Positions 1 through 58,080 of a stretch of DNA of 64,000 nucleotides are shown piece after piece. The notes under the pieces were generated by a model. The model ran no database searches, was not told the origin of the DNA, and saw only the letters and a program-made list of their open reading frames with translations. The stretch lies in contig OZ024744.1 of NCBI GenBank assembly GCA_964016885.1, positions 42,284,001 through 42,348,000 of the forward strand, in the 5' to 3' direction. This stretch comes from Eledone cirrhosa. Lineage: Eukaryota. Made by a program: the position numbers and the translations under genes. The number at the start of each line of letters is the position of its first letter. Positions within the stretch are counted from its first letter, which is position 1.

Positions 1-2160
1 CTACGGTGCATGCTTTCTTCTCCCTGACCCATATAATAATATCTGGTCTGCTATGCCTGCATTTTATTGGGGATTTTACTGGAACATTTCCACCAGTACT
101 CTTTCATATTATGTACATGGATGTCTTCCACATTGCTGTAGCTTTTAATGTGTTTATTATCGGGGCTATCCTTTTTACGAACTGCATTGTACAATGTTTT
201 GGCAACTACATCATGCCTCATAGGTAGATAGTACCGCGATGACATCTTTGTACAGCTGCTAATGACATGGGTGATATCCTCGATGTTAGTTCTGCAGAGT
301 CTGCATTTGTTATCACATCTAGGTGTTTTGCCTGCATCCCTATTTTTTTTGTGAATCAGGTATTTCGTGCTAATCTCCTGTTCCTGGATTGCAAAAGCGT
401 ATCCTTGAAAGTGGGGGCCAATATAGGGAATATCTCTCGAGGAGTCCCTTCCCAACTCTCATGATCTTATCTGTTTCATGCAGATAGACTTGCTCGAGAA
501 ACGGGCTCCTACGCTTCGAGGTTCGTAGATATTGTCGGAGAGATATGATGCGACATTCAAATGTTGTCTGGATTGATGTTAGGCCTCTGCCTCCCTGCTT
601 GCGGTCTATGTCACTGCTGATGTGGAAGTTTCCTGTGTTGTTTAGTATTTTTCGAGTTCCAACATCAACTGCTCGGATTTCGTCCAATTGAGTATTCCAA
701 ACGTTGGTGTTAGGACAGGCACAGCAAACACATTGTGAGCTACTGTTTTGTTTTACGCAGAGAGTTCTGACGACCAGATCTTTCTTAATTGGGTGTAGTA
801 TTCCATGGTTAGGCGTTCTTTATTACAGATACCATTATAGGGGTATCTTCTCATCTATCCCCAGGTATCTGTAGCAGTCCTCATCAGATATCGGTGAAAC
901 AGTTAGGCCATTGATGACAATGTTGCTAGATTGGGTTGTTGTTTTTCCCCGCTTTACAGTCATATATGAGCATTTACCTTGGCTAAACTCCATTCCTATA
1001 TCCTTTGAGAACGTTGTAACCAGGTCAAGATTTTTCTTCATCCCATCCATGTTCTTGGCGTAGAGTTTCAGATCGTCCACAAAGAAATTATCGGTTAGGT
1101 TCGTATTTCTGTCCTCCTGTGAGCCAATGATGTATCCCTCACATTTCTTGAGCAGAAAGGATAAGGGGTTTAATGACAAGATGAATAATATCACAGAGAG
1201 ACTGTCTCCCTGAAATATACTTCTGCGATATTTTATTTTATCAGTGAAAATAGAGTCCTCCCTCTCTGTCTTTAACCTTAAGATAGTAGCCCAAGAAGAG
1301 GACAGCTTCTCTATGGCTCTGATAATAATGTCTGGGACTTTAACAAGTTGGAGGGCCTCTATCATCTAAGAGTAGGGAACAGAATAGAAAGCTTTCCTGT
1401 ATTCTAGCTAGACTGTAGCCATATTCCTCCTAAGATGTCGCACCTCCGACATTGCAGTTTTGTTGATTAGGAGTTGTTCAGCACATCCCCAAACCCCTTT
1501 CTTTCCAGTTGCTTGTTCATCTATGATGATGTTATTATTTTCAGTGATCTTGAGGAATAGGTTCAGGCAGGCTGTATACATCTTATACATCAGGTTCTGG
1601 CATGCAACGGGTCGGTAGTTTTTTGCCAAGTGGGTGTCTATGTTCTTGGGGACCAGTAATGTTTGTGCTAATGTCAACCATTCTGGTATAAGTGTACTTC
1701 CCTTAAGAACTTGTTGGTAGAGGTCAGTAAGACACCTCCAGTTGTTTGTACCAGTAGCCGACAATCATGTCTCTTCCTAGTGTTTTCTCATCTTGGAGTT
1801 TTCCTATCACTGTCTGAAGGGTACCCTCACTTATTTCGTATGTTTTTGTTGTAGTGTAGGAGCAATAGTTCTTTTGGATTTCTCTTAGCCACACTGCATC
1901 TTAGTTGAAATTCTTCTTTTCACCCCATATTTTGTTCGAAAAGGAATCTATATCTTTCTGGGATGGGGCCTCAGTGACACTTATTATTTTGTTCTTCATA
2001 TCTCTATAGACTGATGTTTGGTTTCGTCTGAATCTTTTATAGAGCACTTTTCTCTCATCCACCTTCTTCAGGTATCGGCGTTTTTCGCTAACAGCTCTCA
2101 ATTCTTGTTTGAGGGTGATCAGCTTATATTGAAGAGTTCTGGTTCTACTGTTATTACTAA
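1..2160 (-). mobile_element. R4/Dong-like RLE non-LTR retrotransposon, family A, degraded; runs off the window start
   Basis: Frameshifted ORFs with RT motifs NYRPVAC, FQGDSLS, FFVDDLKLY and the Zn knuckle CRLC...HVISSC...RHD. Homologous to 55890-58080 and 58250-60527. Confidence 0.9.
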
Positions 2161-20380: not shown

Positions 20381-20615
<235 letters not shown>

Positions 20616-21571
20616 TTTAATGGCACCAGACTTCTAGTCTGAAAGGAAGAAATCTAATTGTTATAGAACTTTTCAATCGTGAGAAACCTCCTGATGCTTT
20701 GTTCAGTTTTAGCACGAAGAGTCTTGACTTTTTCTAATACAACTTCTTCAGATGCAAGACTTCATAAAAGTGCCAAAATTTTTCCAACAGTACTAAACAA
20801 AGGCATTGTTAATGTGGATTGTTATTGTTTTTGTTGGTGTTTTTGTTAGATTTTGTTTAGTAGATTGGGAGAGATGGGAGATTCTGTTTCATTTCTATGG
20901 CTCAAGATTTCTTCAATTCAAAATTTCTTTTCATGGATCAATGCCATACAGCGTTTCGGAAATAAAAGTACTCTCACACCACCTATCTCTCGATCGAAGT
21001 ACTATAATGTATATTCAAAAGAAATGGAAAAATCATCCAATATAAAGATCTGGAAAAAGAGATAACCAGTGTGGAGCATTGAAAACAAAAAGGCAGAAAA
21101 AAATTCCTTTAATAGTAGTTGACTTGGGAGTTACTGAAATGAAACAGCCAAATACACACACACACACGTGCACGTACACACACCCACACACACGTTGCGC
21201 AGACGCACACATACACACACACGGGCCTACGCACACACACACACATACACACACATATATATGGTTGGTGTTAGGAAAGGCATCCAGCGGTAAAAATCCC
21301 AGCCAAATTTACAGTTCCATCTGAGCAAGGTACAGCAAGGTACAGCCAATCTGGCCAAATATGTCTCATGACATGGACAACCTGTCTAACCCATGCAAGC
21401 ATAGAAAATGGAATTAAATGGTGATGATGATGATGATGATGATGATGTTCATGGTGATATATATATATATATCATATTTAAAATGGTGGAGAGAACGATG
21501 AAGATTTATGAATACATGTATATTTAATGGCTGATTAGCTTACCTGCTTTTTATTCTGTATATATATATAT

Positions 21572-22079
21572 ATGAAAAACAAGGGGAAGAAGAATACTGC
21601 ATGGTTGCACATGGATTACATATTATATAATTAGTCCCTCATCAGTGATTTTGCCAACCATCATTGGTATTTCATCGCATTAAAAATCATATAACTCAGG
21701 TTGGTTGGAAGCAATAACTAAAATAAGCTATTGGGACAAGTGAAACGCGTAAAGCGAGTGAGACAAGTAAACAACAGAAGGAAAAGCAAACCGAAGGTTG
21801 GAAAACATCAAGCCACATGGTAGTTATCCGATCAGCATAAACTGGGTGAATTTCATGAGCGGTCAGAGAAGCAGACCGTACGACGTGAGTGCGGTGTGAG
21901 AAAGAAGGAACCCCACTAGTAGCGAACGGGAGGAAGTGAGAAGGGGAGAAACAGAGAGTGAGTGAGTGGAAGAGGTCAGTCGAGAGAAAAAGTGTAACTG
22001 ACAGAGAGGGTGAAAGAAGGTAAGAGAAACAGAGAGAACGGTGGAGCAGTAAGAGAGAAAGAGAGAAACAGATAATCGC

Positions 22080-22080
<1 letters not shown>
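21572..22080 (-). mobile_element. TA-flanked non-coding element with structured 3' motif (putative PLE pseudo-LTR), X1
   Basis: Pyrimidine-rich body; hairpin + pseudoknot + CTGATGAGG motif shared with 25660-26275; (TA)n on both sides. Confidence 0.45.
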
Positions 22081-22136
<56 letters not shown>

Positions 22137-22148
22137 CATATACATATG

Positions 22149-22911
22149 AATTCAGCGAGAATCGCATTTCGGCGGATAGAAAAAGCGAGTTTTGCTGGAA
22201 AGCGCTCCATAGTTAAAAAACCAGAGCTAAACAATATGTTAAAACGCCATACAAATTGAAAAAGTAGTCAAGAAGGCATTAACCACCTAAGCCAAAAAAT
22301 ATATCAAGCTAAACAGGTCAAACAAAATAAATAATAAAAAAGACCTGGACCCATTGGAATCGATGGTAAAATCCAAATGCAGAGTTTCTATGACACCTAA
22401 ATCAATAATACTGTCTGCTTAAAAATATAAGTTTTGGTATAATGATCAAACAAGGAATATCACGTTATCAACAGGTATTTTGTGAATGACGTAGAGCTTT
22501 GTAAAAGCACATGTGTAACTCACAAGGGGAAAATCCCCAAATTTTGGCAAATGAATTCAGTATGTGTAAATCATGCAAAATATTGCATAAATAGCACAAA
22601 TCGAATAAGCACTCAACCGAGTAGTTTTTAAAATAAACTTATGCAATTAAGCTGTCAATAGAATTATTAACAGGTTAATTGTAAGACTCGGGAGATTAAT
22701 ACAAATATAAATTCAGCGAGAATCGCATTTCGGCGGGTAGAAAAAGCAAAACGAACCGCAAAAGCAGAGTTATGTTGGCAAGCGCTCAATAGTTAAAAAA
22801 AACAGTGCTAAACAATATGTTAAAACGCCATACAAACTGAAAAAGTGGTCAAGAAGGCATTAACCACCTAAGCCAAAAAACAAATCAAGCTAAACAGGTC
22901 AAACAAAATAA
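22149..22911. repeat. ~180-200 bp direct repeats (22149-22330, 22710-22911) around a ~380 bp spacer
   Basis: Both start AATTCAGCGAGAATCGCATTTCGGCGG and end AAACAGGTCAAACAAAATAA. Confidence 0.85.
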
Positions 22912-24709
22912 TATATATATATGTAGTATGTATATGTATGCCTGTATGTTTGTGTGTGCGTGTAGTCAAGAAGGTGTGTATGTATATATATTATGTATTT
23001 GTATCTGAATATATGTATGTATGTATGATGACCCCTTAGTCTTTGTCAAGGCAGAATTCTAGGAGAAGGAAAACGCTGATATAACACCTGCAACCCTGAT
23101 GGTATCCAATGATGTTGACTTGTTCTTCTTTTTGGTAAATATCATCTTGGTTAAGAGAGTGGGACTGGTTTTGTGCAGTGCCTTTGCTCACTATAAAAGC
23201 TTCACGGCACAGGCATTGCTTTATATCTGGAGATCTCTCTGCACTTGTTATCACAGGGTAAAATGGGCCCAGCACCATGTGTCAGTAATTGTCACAAGTG
23301 TAGTGTTTGTACCAGAGTTTTCAAGTCGCTGGTTGGACTAAAAAGTCACACTCGTTCAGCGCATTTGTAGGGGTTCTCCTACATGGATATAAAGTAGTGG
23401 CCGTACTCGAAAACGAGTTGGCAGCCACCATGTATATATAGACGCAATATATGTGTCATTAGGATGAGAGATGAATGAATCGAGAGTGTTTTAGTAGAGG
23501 TATCATGTGCACAGCCCCTTATGAAGAACAGAGGTCACTGTAGTGGTTGATTAGTGGCAGAGAGAGGTGGGAGAGAAGAGATGCTCATTGGTAAACCAGA
23601 GACAGAAGTGCATTAGTGGAGGACTTCATGTTAATCATCAAGTGATCTTTCTTTGGATATTTATCTAAGATGTGTGTGTGTGTGTTTAGGAGTAATACTC
23701 CATTGTGGGTTTATAGGTTTCCCTGGGACTTTGTAGGGAGTTAAATGTTGCTGGGGACTGAAATATTTTGTCACCATCAAGAGGAATAATATTGAGATTT
23801 ACTGTCTGCTAATGTTAAGAATGTATACATTACTTTATATTTACTATTGTATTTTCACGGTAAAGGCTTTATCTAATATAATATCGAATCTAGGGGATTT
23901 TGATGTTATTTATTTTGAGAACAATACCTTAACATCAGTATGAGTCGCTGGTTACAGCCAGTTTAAATGCTAAAGGGTTAACTTGGGAGAGTCCCAGTGA
24001 AGGTGAGGTCTAGCATTTGAAGAAATCATGAAGCAATCATTATAGTTGAATGCTGTTTATATTTATCTAGGATTCAGTGCAATAATGTTTTTTTTTATAT
24101 GTTCAGTGATTGTGTCTTTTTGTTAAAGAAGACTCCGGCAATCCCATTGGAGGATATTTTTGCTGTCTTTATTCTTGGAGTCAGTTCAGATTTAATGTGA
24201 TCTTCCTTAGTCACATATGGCTGACATTTGTATATAAAAGGTTAAAGAGGAATGAATTTTTTGTTGCAAGTCTTTGTTGTATAAGAGAAAAAGTATGAGA
24301 GACAAAATCTGAATCATAGAGCACACCAGATGTTATAGAATGAAAGAGAACTCTGTCACAATATATTGCAATAATGTGATCTGACAGGAAACAACTGACA
24401 AATCATCACCATTTAATGTCTATTTTCTATCGTTGCATGGGTTAGAGGGGCTGTCATGTTATAAGGCCAAACAGGTTAGGTGACCACTTCTCGCTCATAT
24501 GATTCATTTTATGGCTTGGTTTTTTATGGCTTGGTTTTCTATAACTGGATGCCCCTTCCTTGCACCACACCAACCATATTATGTGTACTGGGAGGTTTTT
24601 TCCTGAAACCATAATGACCACTTTACTGGCTATATTTTGTTGTAGCACCAGTATGACCACCATACAGGGTGCTCTCTGAAACAATTGCATATATATATAT
24701 ATCATCATC

Positions 24710-25640
24710 ATCATCACCGTTTTACATCTGTTCTTCCATGCTATCATGGGTTAGACGGCTTGTCCTGTTGTGGGCAGTGTCCAGTCGGCTGACCTTGTCT
24801 TGCTCATACTGGAACTGATTCTGGCTTGATTTCTACAGCTGGATTTCTACCAACCTCGTTTACAGTGAGTGCTGGGTGCTTTTTTACCGTGGCGCCTACA
24901 CGACTACTTTGCAGTGGTCATATTGTCTATATGTTTCAGCTTCGGCTTTTACCCATGGGAAGTCGGGTCTTCTGTATTACTTCTATATATCCCTCAGTTC
25001 ATTTACGCTGCCGTTTGTATATATTATTATTACACATCCATTGGAGCGTGCAGGCTTCATTCCTTTCCAATCTTCACAAGTCCTCTGCACACAATGCCCA
25101 GGTCTCACTACCATGTAACATTGCTGTTCGTATACAAACATCATGCAATCTGCCTTTCATTTTAAGGGGAACCTTTTGTAGCTAACATCAGTAGTAGCTC
25201 TCTTCTTTCTCCATACCGTGCTTACTCTGGCTACTGTACTTTCAGAACATCTTCCTCCACTGCTGATTTCATCACCCAGGTAACAGAAAGTGTCTACTAT
25301 TTCTATAGAACCATCTGGTCATTTGAAGGAGCTCGTATCCTGTGAACACTTGCTATTCGCTGCACCTGAGCATAGGCCACAAATTTAACCTAGACTCTTT
25401 GATAGCCTGTCTATGACCCCGCTACATCTTACATGTACCCATAGCTTGCAATTGAGACATAGAATGGAATTACTACCTATTCATTTCCTACTTACTAAGC
25501 ATCAATGAAGTACATGGTACTTTTACTGGCACAAATCCAAACTATATTTCATCAAGGTTAATTAGGTCCCTAATCAACTGTGCGATAATTCTTTCTGTGA
25601 CCTTCATGACCTGGTCAACCAACTTAATGCCTCCATAGCT
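24710..25640 (-). mobile_element. RTE LINE fragment plus SINE/RTE-type tail
   Basis: Reverse complement resembles 52.4-53.5 kb (MLHGSETWALCAED); GGCGCC..AAAAAGCACCCAGCACTCAC tail. Confidence 0.75.
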
Positions 25641-25659
25641 TTCTCTCTCTATATATATA

Positions 25660-26275
25660 CTTATATGGAGAATAGAAATGGTTGTGTAGTTGCTATTTAA
25701 GGTAACTTAAAATGCAGTGGGAATACGAAGAAAGCAAGAAGGGAATGGGGGAGTTTTCCTCATCAGTTGTCTACTGGGGGTCTCGGATATTTCTACACTT
25801 TAAAGACAATATCTCGCCCCAGTGCGTCAATAACTGGATAAGTTATTGAGAAAACAGAGGATGGAGGGAAGGAAAGCAAAAGGGAAGAAAAGAGAAAACA
25901 GTAACAAAACAGCAAAAGACAACAACAAACCGAGCAATGTGCGAGCAGCTATAGGTAGGAGATCCAAGACCTCTCGATAAGAGAACCTAAGTTCGAGACT
26001 GAGTGGTCGAGAGGAACAAGACACGTCTGATGGCCGCAGTTGTAAGTGAGAGGGGTACTGCTAAACAGTCAGGCGAGGGGGTGAAAGTGAGAGGGAGAAA
26101 GTGGGGGTAAGAGTAGATAGGGAGATTTAGGGTTAATAAATACAAAGACCAAAGAGGACTCAATAAGGATTGTATATATATATATAAAACCATAGAGAAA
26201 ATATTTATTATTAGCACAGATTAAAATTTCAGATGATCCTGCTTAGGGTGAAAGTAGATGATTTTGCTTAAACTT
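25660..26275 (-). mobile_element. TA-adjacent non-coding element with structured 3' motif (putative PLE pseudo-LTR), X2
   Basis: Same hairpin/pseudoknot/CTGATGAGG layout as X1; 26148-26229 is the reverse complement of 29822-29906. Confidence 0.45.
26225..26275 (+). ncRNA. Hammerhead-like motif with variant core CAGAUGA
   Basis: AATTT-CAGATGA-TCC..GGG-T-GAAA-GTAGA..TTTGC-TT-AAACT; homologous copy at 29776-29826. Confidence 0.4.
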
Positions 26276-26295
26276 GTTGTAATCCATACTAATAA

Positions 26296-26485
26296 TTGTT
26301 TCTACTTTTGGCACAAGGCCAGCAACTACCCAGTGTATTACTGGTACTTTATTTTATCGACCCCGTAAGGATGAAAGGCAAAGTTAACCTTGGCGGGACT
26401 TGAACTCAGAATGGCAAGGGCAGTAACTCTATGCGCCAAAGCATGGCGTCTGACCCTCCACCGATACTGCCAACCCCCCGCCTTT
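26296..26485 (-). mobile_element. Nin/Deu-like SINE
   Basis: Reverse complement of the 3211 family; TSD GTAATCCATACTAATAAT. Confidence 0.85.
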
Positions 26486-27179
26486 AGTAATCCATACTAA
26501 TAATGTGTGTGTGTGTGTAGCAATATCCATAGGTGTGAGAAAAGAAAAAGGAAAAAATGCTCAGTTGGGAAGAGACCAGAAATATTAAACTATTTATTCA
26601 TGTCCATATACAGAACAAAAATGCTACCCAAGGTTTCAAGACCCAATATTCACCATATCTCCAGAATTCAAGACTTTATGATAAACTCATATAAGTGGTC
26701 TGAAGATCACAATTTTGATCCCTCTTGATTTTTGGAAGTGTGATCGATATTGGGCATTGAAATTTGGGCAGCATTCTAGTTCTGTGTATATATATATATA
26801 GTGCTCATTTTGATGGCTCTTCTGCAGGACAAAACTGCATTCTTTATATTTGTCTCAGAGACAGCTGATCCATCATCCACTGTCCCTCCCTGTGGCTCTA
26901 AGCCAGCAGAGTCATAATAACCAGACTGCTCCTTGCCAGTGTAGTTAGGGGCTCTAAACCTAGTGTTGTTAGATAGACTATCAAAGAAAGTATGATAAGA
27001 AACCAGGTGGACCATAATGCACCAGAGTACTCGATACTTAGGGTAATAGTAGGTAATAGGAAAGGAGTCAGGACCTAGACGCATGAGCTCTTAGTTCCGA
27101 TCTAGCTGTTGAAGCAACCCGAGCTCAGCTGTCAGGGTCCTGATTCTTTTCCTATATATATATATATATACATATATAT

Positions 27180-55889: not shown

Positions 55890-58080
55890 GACAAGAAAGG
55901 GGTCTGGGGATGTGCTGAACAACACCTAATCAACAAAACTGCGATGTCGGAGGTGCGACAACTTAGGAGGAATATGGCTACAGTCTGGCTGGACTACAGG
56001 AAAGCTTTCGATTCAGTTCCCCACTTTTGGATGATAGAGGCCCTTCAACTTGCTAAAGTCCCAGACATTATTGTCAGAGCCATAGAGAAGCTGTCTTCTG
56101 CTTGGGCTACTATCCTAAGGTTAAAGACAGAGAGGGAGGACTCTATTTTCACTGATAAAATGAAATATCGCAGGGAGACAGTCTAAATGTGATATTATTC
56201 ATCTTGTCATTAAACCCCTTGTCTTTTCTGCTCAAGAAATGTGAAGGATACATCATTGGCTCACAGGAGGACAGAAATATGAAACTAACCAATAATTTCT
56301 TTGTGGATGATCTGAAACTATATGCCAAGAACATGGATGAGATGAAGAAAAATATTGACCTGGTTACAACGTTCTCAAAGGATATAGGAATGGAGTTTGA
56401 CCAGGATAAAAGCTCATATATGACTGTAATGCGGGGGAAAACAACAACCCAATCTAGCAACATTGTCATCAATGGCCTAAATGTTTCACCGATATCTGAT
56501 GAGGACTGCTACATATACCTGGGGATAGATGAGAACATATCATATAATGGTATATGTAATAAGGAATGCGTAACCAGGGAATACTACACCCGATTAAGAA
56601 AGATTTGGTCTTCAGAACTCTCTGCGCAAAACAAAACAGTGGCTCACAATGTGTTTGCTGTGCCTGTCCTAACACCAACATTTGGAATACTCAATTGGAC
56701 GATTGACAAAATCCGAGTAGTTGATGTTGGAACTCGAAAAATACTAAACAACACCGGAAACTTCCACATCAACAGTGACATAGACCGCCTTTACTTGAAA
56801 CGTAAGCAGGGAGGCAGAGGCCTAACATCAGTCCAGACAGCATTTGAATGTCGCATCATATCTCTACGACAACATCTACGAACATCGAAGCGTAAGAGCC
56901 CGTCTATTGAGCAAGTATATCTGCATGGAACAGATAAGATCATGAGAGTTGGGAAGGAAATCTTCGAGAGGTATTCCCTGAGTGATAATCAAAAACTCAC
57001 ATCCAAGGAAGTCGCTCAGCAGTATTGCAGTGAACCCTGGATGAAAAACTGCATGCTTATCAGCAAAAAATCATGCATGGATATGTTGCCAGGAAGCCCC
57101 AGAGGGAGAGTAATATAGATAAGGAAAGTAGTCTATCTTGGACCAACAACCACTATATTGGCCCCCACTTTGAAGGATATGCTTTTGCAATCCAAGAATA
57201 GGAAATTAACACAAAATACCTGATTCACAAAAGAGATAGGCATGCAGGCAAAACACCTAAATGTGATAACAAGTGCAAACTCCGCAGAACTAACATCGAA
57301 GATATCATCAATGTCATCAGCAGCTGTCCAAAGATGTCATTGCGGTACTATCTACCTATGAGGCATGATGTAGTGCCCAAAACACTGTACAATGCAATCC
57401 GTAAAAAAGATAGCCCCGATAATAAATACATTAAAAGCTACAGCAATGTGGAAGACTTCATGTACATAATATGAAAGAGTACTGGTGGAATGTTCTAGTA
57501 AAAACCCCAATAAATTGCAGGTATAACAGACCAGATATTATGATATGGGACAGGGAAAAGAAGGCATGCACAGTAGTGGAAATTAGCTGCCCAACAGATG
57601 CCAATATAATATCAAAGATTAGCAAAAAGGAGAATATTTATGCAGAACTGATGAGAAATCTGCAGATACTCTACCCTGATTACACCTTCAGATTTATGCC
57701 TGTGATTATTGCGGCATTGGGGTAGGTTAGTAACTGCCTCAATACAAATCTTGAGAAGCTAGGCTTCACAGGAACAGAAAGAACACAACTAGTTAGGAAA
57801 TTACAAGTACAATCCATTAACGGAACAGTAAAATATGTAAAACATTCCAAAAATTGTGCATCTAATAACTGCATATACACATGTACAGATGCAAAGCATA
57901 TACACATGCACACATACAACTCAAAACATAAACATCCATATCTACACATGCATGCATACATACATATCTACCTAGTTGATGTTGTGTAAATTCCAATGAG
58001 AGAGTCTTGTGTCTATGTTAGAAACTGACTCACTCTCTACTGGGAAAAAATTTGTGAAATTATAAAACCAGAAGAACATA
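55890..58080 (+). mobile_element. R4/Dong-like LINE family A, 3' half with 3' UTR
   Basis: WLDYRKAFDS, FFVDDLKLY, RHD, NRPDIMIWD..VEISCP; ends at (CATA)n. Confidence 0.9.

Follow-up and report, generated by a model that had tools for sequence, protein, structure and literature searches.

Why would two repeats that are alike almost solely in one block of about 100 nucleotides (nt) keep, in that block, the same pseudoknotted arrangement of strands, and what might such an RNA do? This question is raised by a 64,000-nt stretch of the Eledone cirrhosa genome (assembly GCA_964016885.1, contig OZ024744.1, positions 42,284,001 to 42,348,000 of the forward strand; hereafter, the window, in whose coordinates positions are given below), in which two insertions joined to TA repeats, X1 and X2, each carry the block on the minus strand. 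We propose that the motif is a self-cleaving hammerhead ribozyme of a new topology, with the cut predicted to occur after the unpaired A or C (position H17) located 5' of the second of two crossing stems; we put the probability of this reading at roughly 60%. The proposal draws on the combination of the hammerhead core nucleotides with six covarying helices in a pseudoknotted, non-circular order, which leads us to predict a self-cleaving ribozyme.

An initial annotation of the window had described, for both elements, a hairpin, two crossing stems, a GAAA and a terminal CUGAUGAGG on the minus strand, and all these parts are present at the places it gave. In X2, the hairpin strands are CAATAACT and AGTTATTG, the stem ACTGGGG...CCCCAGT crosses the stem TTGTCT...AGACAA, GAAATA lies between them, and CTGATGAGG occupies 25766-25758; in X1, the hairpin is CAATAGCT/AGTTATTG, the stem CCAACCA...TGGTTGG crosses TGATTT...AAATCA, and CTGATGAGG occupies 21645-21637. 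At both sites, the hairpin consists of 8 bp, and the strands of the two stems, A and B, are interleaved in the order A5', B5', A3', B3', with GAAAUA between the stems. The initial placement of the motif stands, and its extent has to be enlarged by about 7 nt on each side: the complete motif, from the 5' to the 3' strand of stem II (see below), covers 103 nt in X2 (25753..25855, minus strand; 104.6 bits with our motif model, R1, over 25750-25857) and 104 nt in X1 (21634..21737, minus strand; 99.9 bits over 21629-21742). In a forced alignment of the surrounding elements, the similarity of X1 and X2 is confined to the motif block, with almost none outside, in keeping with their description as two divergent elements. 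The pattern AGTTATTG-N(50-80)-CTGATGAGG matches only X1 and X2 in the window (0.02 matches expected from 100 shuffles, none of which contained two or more), and the whole 3.0-Gb genome contains 1,646 matches (827+819) versus a single one (1+0) in the reversed control.

Read from 5' to 3', the motif starts with the 5' strand of stem II, the hairpin (P1), a strand denoted alpha, the 5' strand of helix A, (N)GA and the 5' strand of stem III, which ends with U16.1; these are followed by H17 (A or C), the 5' strand of stem I, a 5-nt linker, strand X, which pairs with alpha, G12-A13-A14, and the 3' strand of stem III, which begins with A15.1; and the motif ends with a 3-nt bulge and GA in a kink-turn-like loop, the 3' strands of helix A and stem I, CUGAUGA, and the 3' strand of stem II. 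All the hammerhead core nucleotides are present (CUGAUGA, GAAA, and an A-U pair followed by an unpaired A or C), and each adjoins the helix expected of it. The first crossing stem is helix A and the second, B, corresponds to stem I, such that the U and the A or C preceding B correspond to U16.1 and H17, and the GAAA that had been assigned to a loop consists of G12-A14 and A15.1. The candidate site that had been placed after the UA in front of the second stem agrees with the cut predicted here 3' of H17. The initial annotation had considered a permuted or non-canonical hammerhead-like ribozyme, a reading that the wider data support; the stems II and III that it was unable to build both exist and covary.

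Stem III comprises 5 bp, made up of A15.1-U16.1 and of the pairs between the 4 nt that follow A15.1 and the 4 nt that precede U16.1; it is nested within helix A and changes on both sides between X2 (GAUAU/AUAUC) and X1 (GGUAU/AUACC). Stem II is formed by the bases after CUGAUGA with those preceding P1 (GGAAAAC/GUUUUCC, GGGAUAA/UUAUCCC and GGGAC/GUCCC). The gap 5' of GAAA is closed by a sixth helix, alpha/X (ACGC/GCGU, UCGCA/UGCGA, UUGCA/UGCAA and UUCGC/GCGAA), in which alpha is the linker between P1 and helix A. Across families, stem I appears as UUGUCU/AGACAA, UGAUUU/AAAUCA, UAGUCU/AGACUA and UGGCC/GGCCA; helix A as CUGGGG/CCCCAG, CCAACC/GGUUGG, CCAACG/CGUUGG, CUGAUU/AAUCAG, CUAGGC/GCCUAG and CCGACG/UGUCGG; and P1 as CAACG.../...CCGUUG or CAAUA.../...UUAUUG. 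In the predicted fold, every core strand contacts the same helices as in a normal hammerhead; compared with the latter, the GAAA and the stem III strand lie between the two strands of stem I, and a junction at which stem II, P1, alpha/X and the core meet would take the place of the C11.1-G12 chain. Immediately downstream of CUGAUGA, a local hairpin, GGA...UCC, was also considered as stem II and was dropped in favor of the pairing with the bases that precede P1, which is longer and covaries; the hairpin may represent another conformer. Canonical type I, II and III folds were attempted by hand and rejected; they require a GAAA after stem II.

In X2 (all coordinates on the minus strand), the 5' strand of stem II (IIb; GUUUUCU, with GUUUUCC as the family majority) spans 25849..25855 and pairs with 25759-25753; P1, with the loop UAUCC, spans 25828..25848; alpha (ACGC, 25824..25827) pairs with strand X (GUGU, 25798-25795), just 5' of GAAA; and the 5' strand of helix A (ACUGGGG, 25817..25823) pairs with 25779-25773. 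The segment 25804..25816 holds J1 (CGA), the 5' strand of stem III (GAUAU), H17 and the 5' strand of stem I (UUGUCU), which overlap owing to a 2-nt deletion, with the predicted cleavage site after A25810. It is followed by G12-A13-A14 and the 3' strand of stem III (AUAUC; 25786..25793), J2 (CGA-GA-C, that is, the 3-nt bulge and GA of the kink-turn-like loop between stem III and helix A; 25780..25785), the 3' strand of helix A (CCCCAGU) running directly into that of stem I (AGACAA; 25767..25779), and CUGAUGA (25766-25760) with the 3' strand of stem II (GGAAAAC, 25759-25753), together 25753..25766. In X1, also on the minus strand, P1 spans 21712..21733, with the 5' strand of stem II (GUCC(C)) just upstream at 21737-21733; 21684..21704 holds the 5' strand of helix A (CCAACC, 21704-21699), J1 (UGA), the 5' strand of stem III (GUUAU, with GGUAU as the majority), H17 (A21690) and the 5' strand of stem I (UGAUUU, 21689-21684), with cleavage predicted between 21690 and 21689; and 21634..21673 holds GAA (21673-21671), the 3' strand of stem III (AUACC), J2 (AAU-GA-U), the 3' strands of helix A (GGUUGG, 21659-21654) and stem I (AAAUCA, 21651-21646), CUGAUGA (21645-21639), and the 3' strand of stem II (GGGAC, 21638-21634). 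The X2 copy is 2 nt short in an AUAUAU run extending from stem III over H17 to the first base of stem I, so that stem III, H17, stem I and the kink-turn cannot all form at once; the X1 copy has an altered alpha strand (the linker) and a G-to-U change in stem III relative to the family majority. Both window copies are probably dead members of active families.

Pattern searches with locus retrieval across the genome yielded more than 12 families with other stem sequences, in which the crossing stems remain paired, the outcome that the check proposed in the initial annotation called for. Pair statistics were computed over the 36 pairs of the 6 helices, with partners slid by 1-3 columns as the control and with 500 shuffles. 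In a MAFFT alignment of 18 representatives, 92.1% of the cells were paired compared to 31.9-46.1% with slid partners, 18 pairs changed on both sides (2-8 when slid), and the covariation score was 0.388 (at most 0.125 when slid). For 24 representatives from more than 12 families, also aligned with MAFFT, the fraction of paired cells was 91.0% (31.9-45.7% when slid), with 18 of the 36 pairs changed on both sides and a score of 0.392; and in a model alignment of 104 uncurated matches (93 distinct), which is biased towards the nested helices of the model, with the pseudoknotted helices I and alpha/X lying outside it, 90.8% of the cells were paired (at most 41.5% when slid), 25 pairs changed on both sides, and the score was 0.371. 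The observed score was reached by 0 of the 500 shuffles in all three alignments. Among the 24 representatives, pairing was 96.5% in stem I (4 of the 6 pairs changed on both sides), 97.5% in stem III (1 of 5) and 94.8% in alpha/X (2 of 4); stem II has 4-7 bp per family and falls into three sequence types. RNAalifold, run without a supplied structure, recovers stem II (3 bp), P1, helix A and stem III, and single-sequence minimum free energy (MFE) folds contain stem II in 5 of 5 cases and the combination of II, P1, A and III in 3 of 5.

These counts also bear on the notion that the pairings are accidental or exist at the DNA level, as inverted repeats derived from insertion, with no RNA structure involved. 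Penelope-like insertions often leave inverted partial copies, and a fold-back of two inverted half-motifs, each with the 3' strands of helix A and stem I, CUGAUGA and a stem II strand, was found in another family (L095:2210-2308). Nevertheless, pairing is maintained through changes on both sides in 18-25 of the 36 pairs, a level of covariation that shuffling did not produce, the genome contains over a thousand pattern matches against one in the control, and the strand of the motif is fixed relative to the 3' junction of the insertions, all of which makes this explanation next to untenable.

Turning to the core, the columns C3, U4, G5, U7, G8, A9, G12-A14, A15.1 and U16.1 are invariant in all 24 representatives, and A6 and G10.1 are kept in at least 90% of the rows; each core position retains its letter in 100-104 of the 104 model matches, counts that have to be read in light of the fact that some loci were retrieved with patterns containing GAAAT and CTGATGAGG. 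H17 in the same 104 matches is A in 58, C in 41, U in 2, a gap in 3 and G in none.

The internal loop between stem III and helix A fits the kink-turn sequence pattern, with a 3-nt bulge and GA facing (G/U)A. All 24 rows have GA on the bulged strand, the A on the opposite strand is kept in at least 90%, and the opposite G position is G in 91 and U in 13 of the 104 matches. Kink-turns are known from box C/D RNAs and from the 5' stem-loop of the U4 small nuclear RNA. The similarity to these includes a canonical stem ending in C-G, the 3-nt bulge, the GA on the bulged strand opposite (G/U)A, and a further helix; unlike them, the loop in this case is embedded in a ribozyme-like core, and its second pair is of the A-U type in some families. 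A kink-turn at this position would fold helix A back along stem III, with the far end running into stem I and alpha without a linker, and the helix lengths are compatible with such a fold-back (9-10 bp for helix A with the non-canonical pairs, and 11 bp for stems III and I together).

Such a loop could also belong to a small ribonucleoprotein element of the box C/D type, with a kink-turn bound by a protein of the SNU13/L7Ae type and CUGAUGA serving as box C or D. X1 has a weak Rfam match to the C/D small nucleolar RNA (snoRNA) snR66 (25.1 bits, E-value 1.4), and its internal loop resembles box D' and C' (CUGA opposite AUGAUG, with a 3-nt bulge and tandem GA), given what we take to be the consensus of these boxes. 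However, the snR66 score is far under the gathering score of 65, there is neither a terminal stem with C and D boxes nor a guide layout, and the loop letters of X2 and other families differ (CGAGAC, UACGAC) while the GA pairs stay. Moreover, a kink-turn accounts for one loop only and not for GAAA, H17, helices I, II and alpha/X, or P1, and we regard a box C/D-like element as improbable.

No Rfam family reaches its gathering score anywhere in the 64-kb window; a match to a described family was one of the outcomes that, according to the initial annotation, would have refuted its proposal. A permissive scan of 20500-27000 (E-values up to 10) gave 16 weak matches, the snR66 match among them and no hammerhead model, which consisted of microsatellite-driven microRNA (miRNA) matches and weak snoRNA matches. 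The (TA)n/(TG)n microsatellites that flank X1 (22073-22149 and 21192-21260, minus strand) produce such spurious miRNA matches (mir-297, 42.3 bits, with a gathering score of 90). As for other self-cleaving ribozymes, a hepatitis delta virus (HDV)-like fold, which is a nested double pseudoknot (P1-P4) with P4 and a catalytic C between the 3' strands of P1 and P2, was rejected given that only 0-3 nt separate the two 3' strands of the motif, too few to accommodate P4, and there is no Rfam match; Pistol, twister and hatchet have no Rfam match either and, to our knowledge, no resemblance to the motif.

Hammerheads were long believed to be limited to three circular permutations, and non-circular ones were first reported in 2023, in environmental RNA from unknown hosts. 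The motif does not have any of the circular topologies, types I to III, that Rfam models can detect: canonical type I hammerheads are nested three-way junctions, open at stem I, that are detected by RF00163, whereas the motif is pseudoknotted, is missed by all Rfam hammerhead models, and has no sequence in common with the canonical hammerheads of this genome. In the scheme of Eckert, Friedrich, Weinberg and Weinberg (2023, PMC10085705), the hammerhead is divided into blocks S, G and C, and a non-circular type, SGC, was validated; the examples in the portions of that article used here (HRIMA-1 and SGC variants) were drawn from metatranscriptomic and metagenomic sequences, and underwent cleavage in vitro. 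Like type SGC as presented in those portions, the motif has the cleavage-site, GAAA and CUGANGA blocks in this 5'-3' order (24 of 24 representatives), all core nucleotides, at least two core pseudoknots, covariation in stems I and II as well as in stem III, and a stem I strand that continues towards the strand 5' of GAAA. The differences lie in the wiring. Type SGC has uninterrupted blocks, with the strands 5' of GAAA and 3' of CUGANGA paired to each other, and a linker of roughly 3 nt leads on from stem I; in the present motif, the partner of strand X, which lies 5' of GAAA, is alpha, located near the 5' end, and the strand that follows CUGAUGA is paired with the very 5' end of the motif. P1 lies in between, the linker measures 5 nt, and the kink-turn-like loop and helix A form an extension of stem III. 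No complementarity of X with the bases after CUGAUGA was found by inspection, and the blocks are not uninterrupted as they are in type SGC. The motif can be described as a type SGC hammerhead with an opening between A9 and 10.1 that a closing helix bridges, which would make it a new topology variant, of the S-G-C order with one block split. Among the points raised by Eckert et al. is a geometric puzzle, that of how the far end of stem III can be connected with remote helix ends (PMC10085705, in the same portions), and the kink-turn-like loop sits at exactly this connection, on which it may bear. A term search of that article returned no instance of 'animal', 'retrozyme' or 'k-turn', and our survey of the literature outside subscription journals turned up neither a hammerhead with a kink-turn nor a permuted one from animals or retrozymes.

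The repeats that carry the motif are non-coding units of 530-620 nt, often arranged head-to-tail, 5'-truncated and joined to (TA)n; the copies have a common 3' end and differing 5' ends, and the U-rich CAUAUA site at which they meet (TA)n is fixed and lies 20-100 nt downstream of the motif. The initial annotation had offered a conserved 3' structure of a retroelement as the other possibility, which is true as a description of the place. The X2 family comprises 2,264 first-look candidates that are 90-95% identical; the X1 family, 1,335 that are approximately 95% identical; and a third family, F7, 1,917 that are 99% identical, with 25 of 48 motif instances identical to one another, which suggests very recent activity. 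In F7 (L141-L170, for example, L142:1521-1633), the units are approximately 616-626 nt long, (TA)n is joined only about 15-20 nt after stem II, and P1 shows two compensatory pair changes and a fixed A-C mismatch. In the window, the X2-family insertion with the motif (25650..26125, minus strand) is truncated at the 5' end and passes into a TA/GA microsatellite at the 3' end, and the X1-family insertion (21559..22079, minus strand) consists of about one 531-nt unit with (TA)n on both sides and the 3' junction at unit position 82. The 531-nt X1 unit can form tandems, with more than four units in one locus (L065). A palindromic hairpin (UGCA...UGCA) is located about 25-70 nt past CUGAUGAGG in the X1 unit (window positions ~21570-21615), between the motif and the 3' junction; it is common to X1, F7 and a further family, F8, and may be the other covarying motif to which the initial annotation alluded.

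The ends of the insertions were examined in 40 X1 blocks. Their 3' ends fall at unit position 82 in 32 blocks and at 79 in 2, whereas the 5' ends are scattered over the whole unit, and 18 of the 40 blocks are longer than one 531-nt unit. In X2, the body is preceded by a partial extra unit, a second occurrence of the approximately 100 nt that lie downstream of CUGAUGAGG, in the manner of a pseudo-long terminal repeat (pseudo-LTR), and in 3 of 9 copies (L003, L005 and L008) the insertion starts within 2 nt of CUGAUGAGG, directly after the upstream (TA)n; reverse transcription could often halt at the foot of the folded motif.

No open reading frame (ORF) was found in the carriers, and ARAGORN detected no tRNA-derived head of a short interspersed element in 20500-27000. 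The carriers have tandem non-coding units, 5' truncation and (TA)n junctions, which are traits of non-autonomous Penelope-like elements and make them candidates for such elements or for animal non-LTR retrozymes. The canonical type I hammerheads reported from Penelope-like elements and from such retrozymes also lie near the 3' end or in the pseudo-LTR of the element or its tandem derivative, and their carriers share with ours the head-to-tail units, 5' truncation and microsatellite targets. In other, unrelated repeats of this genome, canonical type I hammerheads (RF00163) occur about 50 nt before (TA)n; in one set of loci (L093-L110), RF00163 gave 18 matches over the cut-off among the 74 scored, with a minimal stem III and about 50 nt upstream of (TA)n, and some of these repeats have an inverted partial copy just upstream, which is a known Penelope-like insertion pattern.

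The genome contains approximately 10,600 first-look GIY-YIG candidates. As regards an autonomous partner, the motif is present in 0 of the 30 best GIY-YIG loci, a tblastn comparison of ORFs from GIY-YIG loci with the motif loci gave scattered fragments only, and five loci with long ORFs and one 10-kb region contain no R1 match above 13.2 bits. In the window itself, a LINE-like family (long interspersed nuclear element) is represented by two copies of a reverse transcriptase ORF (...FVDDLKLYAKN...; 700-1100, minus strand, and 56300-56700, plus strand); CTGATGAGG inside both copies is a chance occurrence in coding sequence, unrelated to the motif. A search of other organisms with a 22-base pattern gave 89 stretches of metagenome contigs, of which the 80 screened with R1 scored at most 17.6 bits, compared to 90-118 bits for genuine copies, and yielded no relative.

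A broader context is offered by the Naiad elements. In the portions of the article and supplement used here (Craig, Yushenova, Rodriguez and Arkhipova 2021, PMC8557442), Naiads are reported to lack a canonical hammerhead, with only an 'HHR_core' or 'HHR_half_core' flagged, and to proliferate without one; the metadata give a (TA)n insertion preference for many Naiads, including all five from cephalopods, and a permuted fold is not described. We read the consensus passages of the supplement by eye and could recognize the same strand order and helices in the 3' regions of 9 of them, while the letters differ in every helix. By eye, the entire order can be followed in the octopus Naiad_Obim and Naiad_Ovul, where the P1 loop and the UGA/AAUGAU loop are the same as in X1, and in the coral Naiad_Amil, Naiad_Aacu and Naiad_Anas; it is looser in the squid Naiad_Esco; in Naiad-2_Movir of a box jellyfish, the core is CUGAGGA (N7 varies) and the bulge is on the other strand; and the remaining two, both named by file order, are Naiad_Plae and one from a crustacean. 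Naiad_Bfor did not parse by eye, and two nematode consensus sequences appear to have a C-then-G order instead, with a long stem II. In the crab Naiad-Ppla, again by eye, the cleavage-site block and the GAAA and CUGACGA blocks are seemingly about 290 nt apart, possibly a discontinuous version of the same fold. The window elements share with Naiads, as described in the same material, the (TA)n preference and the partial tandems (pseudo-LTRs); unlike Naiads, they have no ORF, and no autonomous Naiad with the motif was found among the loci examined in this genome. In some E. cirrhosa families (L274-L285), the 3' strand of stem III reads ACCAU (20 pattern matches, none in the control), like that of the octopus Naiad consensus, and one of these groups has a much shorter helix A, with AA replacing GA on the non-bulged side of the loop.

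Several observations weigh against self-cleavage. Catalysis is read from the sequence alone; the wiring fits 0 of the six block orders in the portions of Eckert et al. 2023 (PMC10085705) used here; and the fold needs an unproven junction where the normal hammerhead has a continuous C11.1-G12 backbone, next to the general base G12, while the base just 5' of G12 varies (A, U or C) with no change of a partner. Stem II is only 69-74% paired in fixed columns, because of a 1-nt register shift between families with GG and GGG; the contrast between its cognate and non-cognate pairings is modest (5.8 versus 4.4 bp on average); and the z-scores of the MFE folds (-1.0 to -3.0) are weak. Tool-based searches returned no copy beyond this genome, and Naiads were compared by eye only. 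Conservation extends to many unpaired positions that are not part of the core, for example, the UUUAA linker and GCG, and by itself does not therefore single out catalysis. Finally, the 5' ends of the 40 X1 blocks do not accumulate at the predicted cut (unit position ~488; the nearest 5' end is at 477), in a sample biased by the selection of loci with a complete motif; the native UAUAUG at this site is indistinguishable from the TA target.

The last two points would be expected if the fold were real and non-catalytic, that is, a 3' module, perhaps derived from a hammerhead, to which the reverse transcriptase or a protein of the host would bind, either setting the point where copying starts or protecting the RNA, and in which the hammerhead-like letters are kept for binding or folding. 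The constant placement of the motif 20-100 nt upstream of the fixed (TA)n junction, the X2 insertions that start at CUGAUGAGG as if copying stopped at a stable fold, and the reported proliferation of Naiads without a canonical hammerhead (PMC8557442, in the portions used here) point in the same direction. Against such a module, binding need not keep all 13 catalytic-core letters and an unpaired non-G at position 17, each adjoining its proper helix, through a full turnover of the helices in more than 12 families. Furthermore, the same core is seen, by eye, in the Naiad consensus sequences from other phyla (in the supplementary passages used here), where only the free N7 differs (CUGAGGA, CUGACGA), and sister repeats in this genome carry a canonical hammerhead at an equivalent place. 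We consider the non-catalytic module the main, though rather unlikely, alternative to a self-cleaving hammerhead of new topology.

If the motif is such a ribozyme, transcripts of tandem units would be cut after H17 to unit length, as proposed for animal retrozymes, and the cut RNA might be circularised or re-ligated. A Naiad-type reverse transcriptase could then copy this RNA, primed on a nicked TA repeat at the downstream CAUAUA site; multimeric or circular templates would explain the insertions that are longer than one unit. The sequence features, their covariation, the unit structure and the junctions are established by the data; catalysis, the kink, the circular RNA and the identity of the reverse transcriptase are what we infer here. 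In its full form, the proposal combines an undescribed topology, in which one block of the S-G-C order is split, a four-way junction bridges the gap in the core and a kink-turn joins stem III to stem I, with the role of the 'missing' ribozyme of Naiads across animal phyla, which would produce unit-length, possibly circular templates for reverse transcription into TA microsatellites; to this whole we would give even odds.

Descriptor-based and Rfam searches miss motifs of this kind, and censuses of ribozymes in animal genomes are therefore probably incomplete. If the motif cleaves, it would represent a further hammerhead topology, in which a junction occupies the C11.1-G12 step and stem III contains a kink-turn, and would bear on the question of how distant helix ends are joined in folding, as raised in the portions of Eckert et al. 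(PMC10085705) used here. Cleavage would also explain the 'half cores' of Naiads, which are reported without a hammerhead in the parts of PMC8557442 drawn upon here. Rewired ribozymes would then be abundant in an animal genome, where their host and biological role are open to study.

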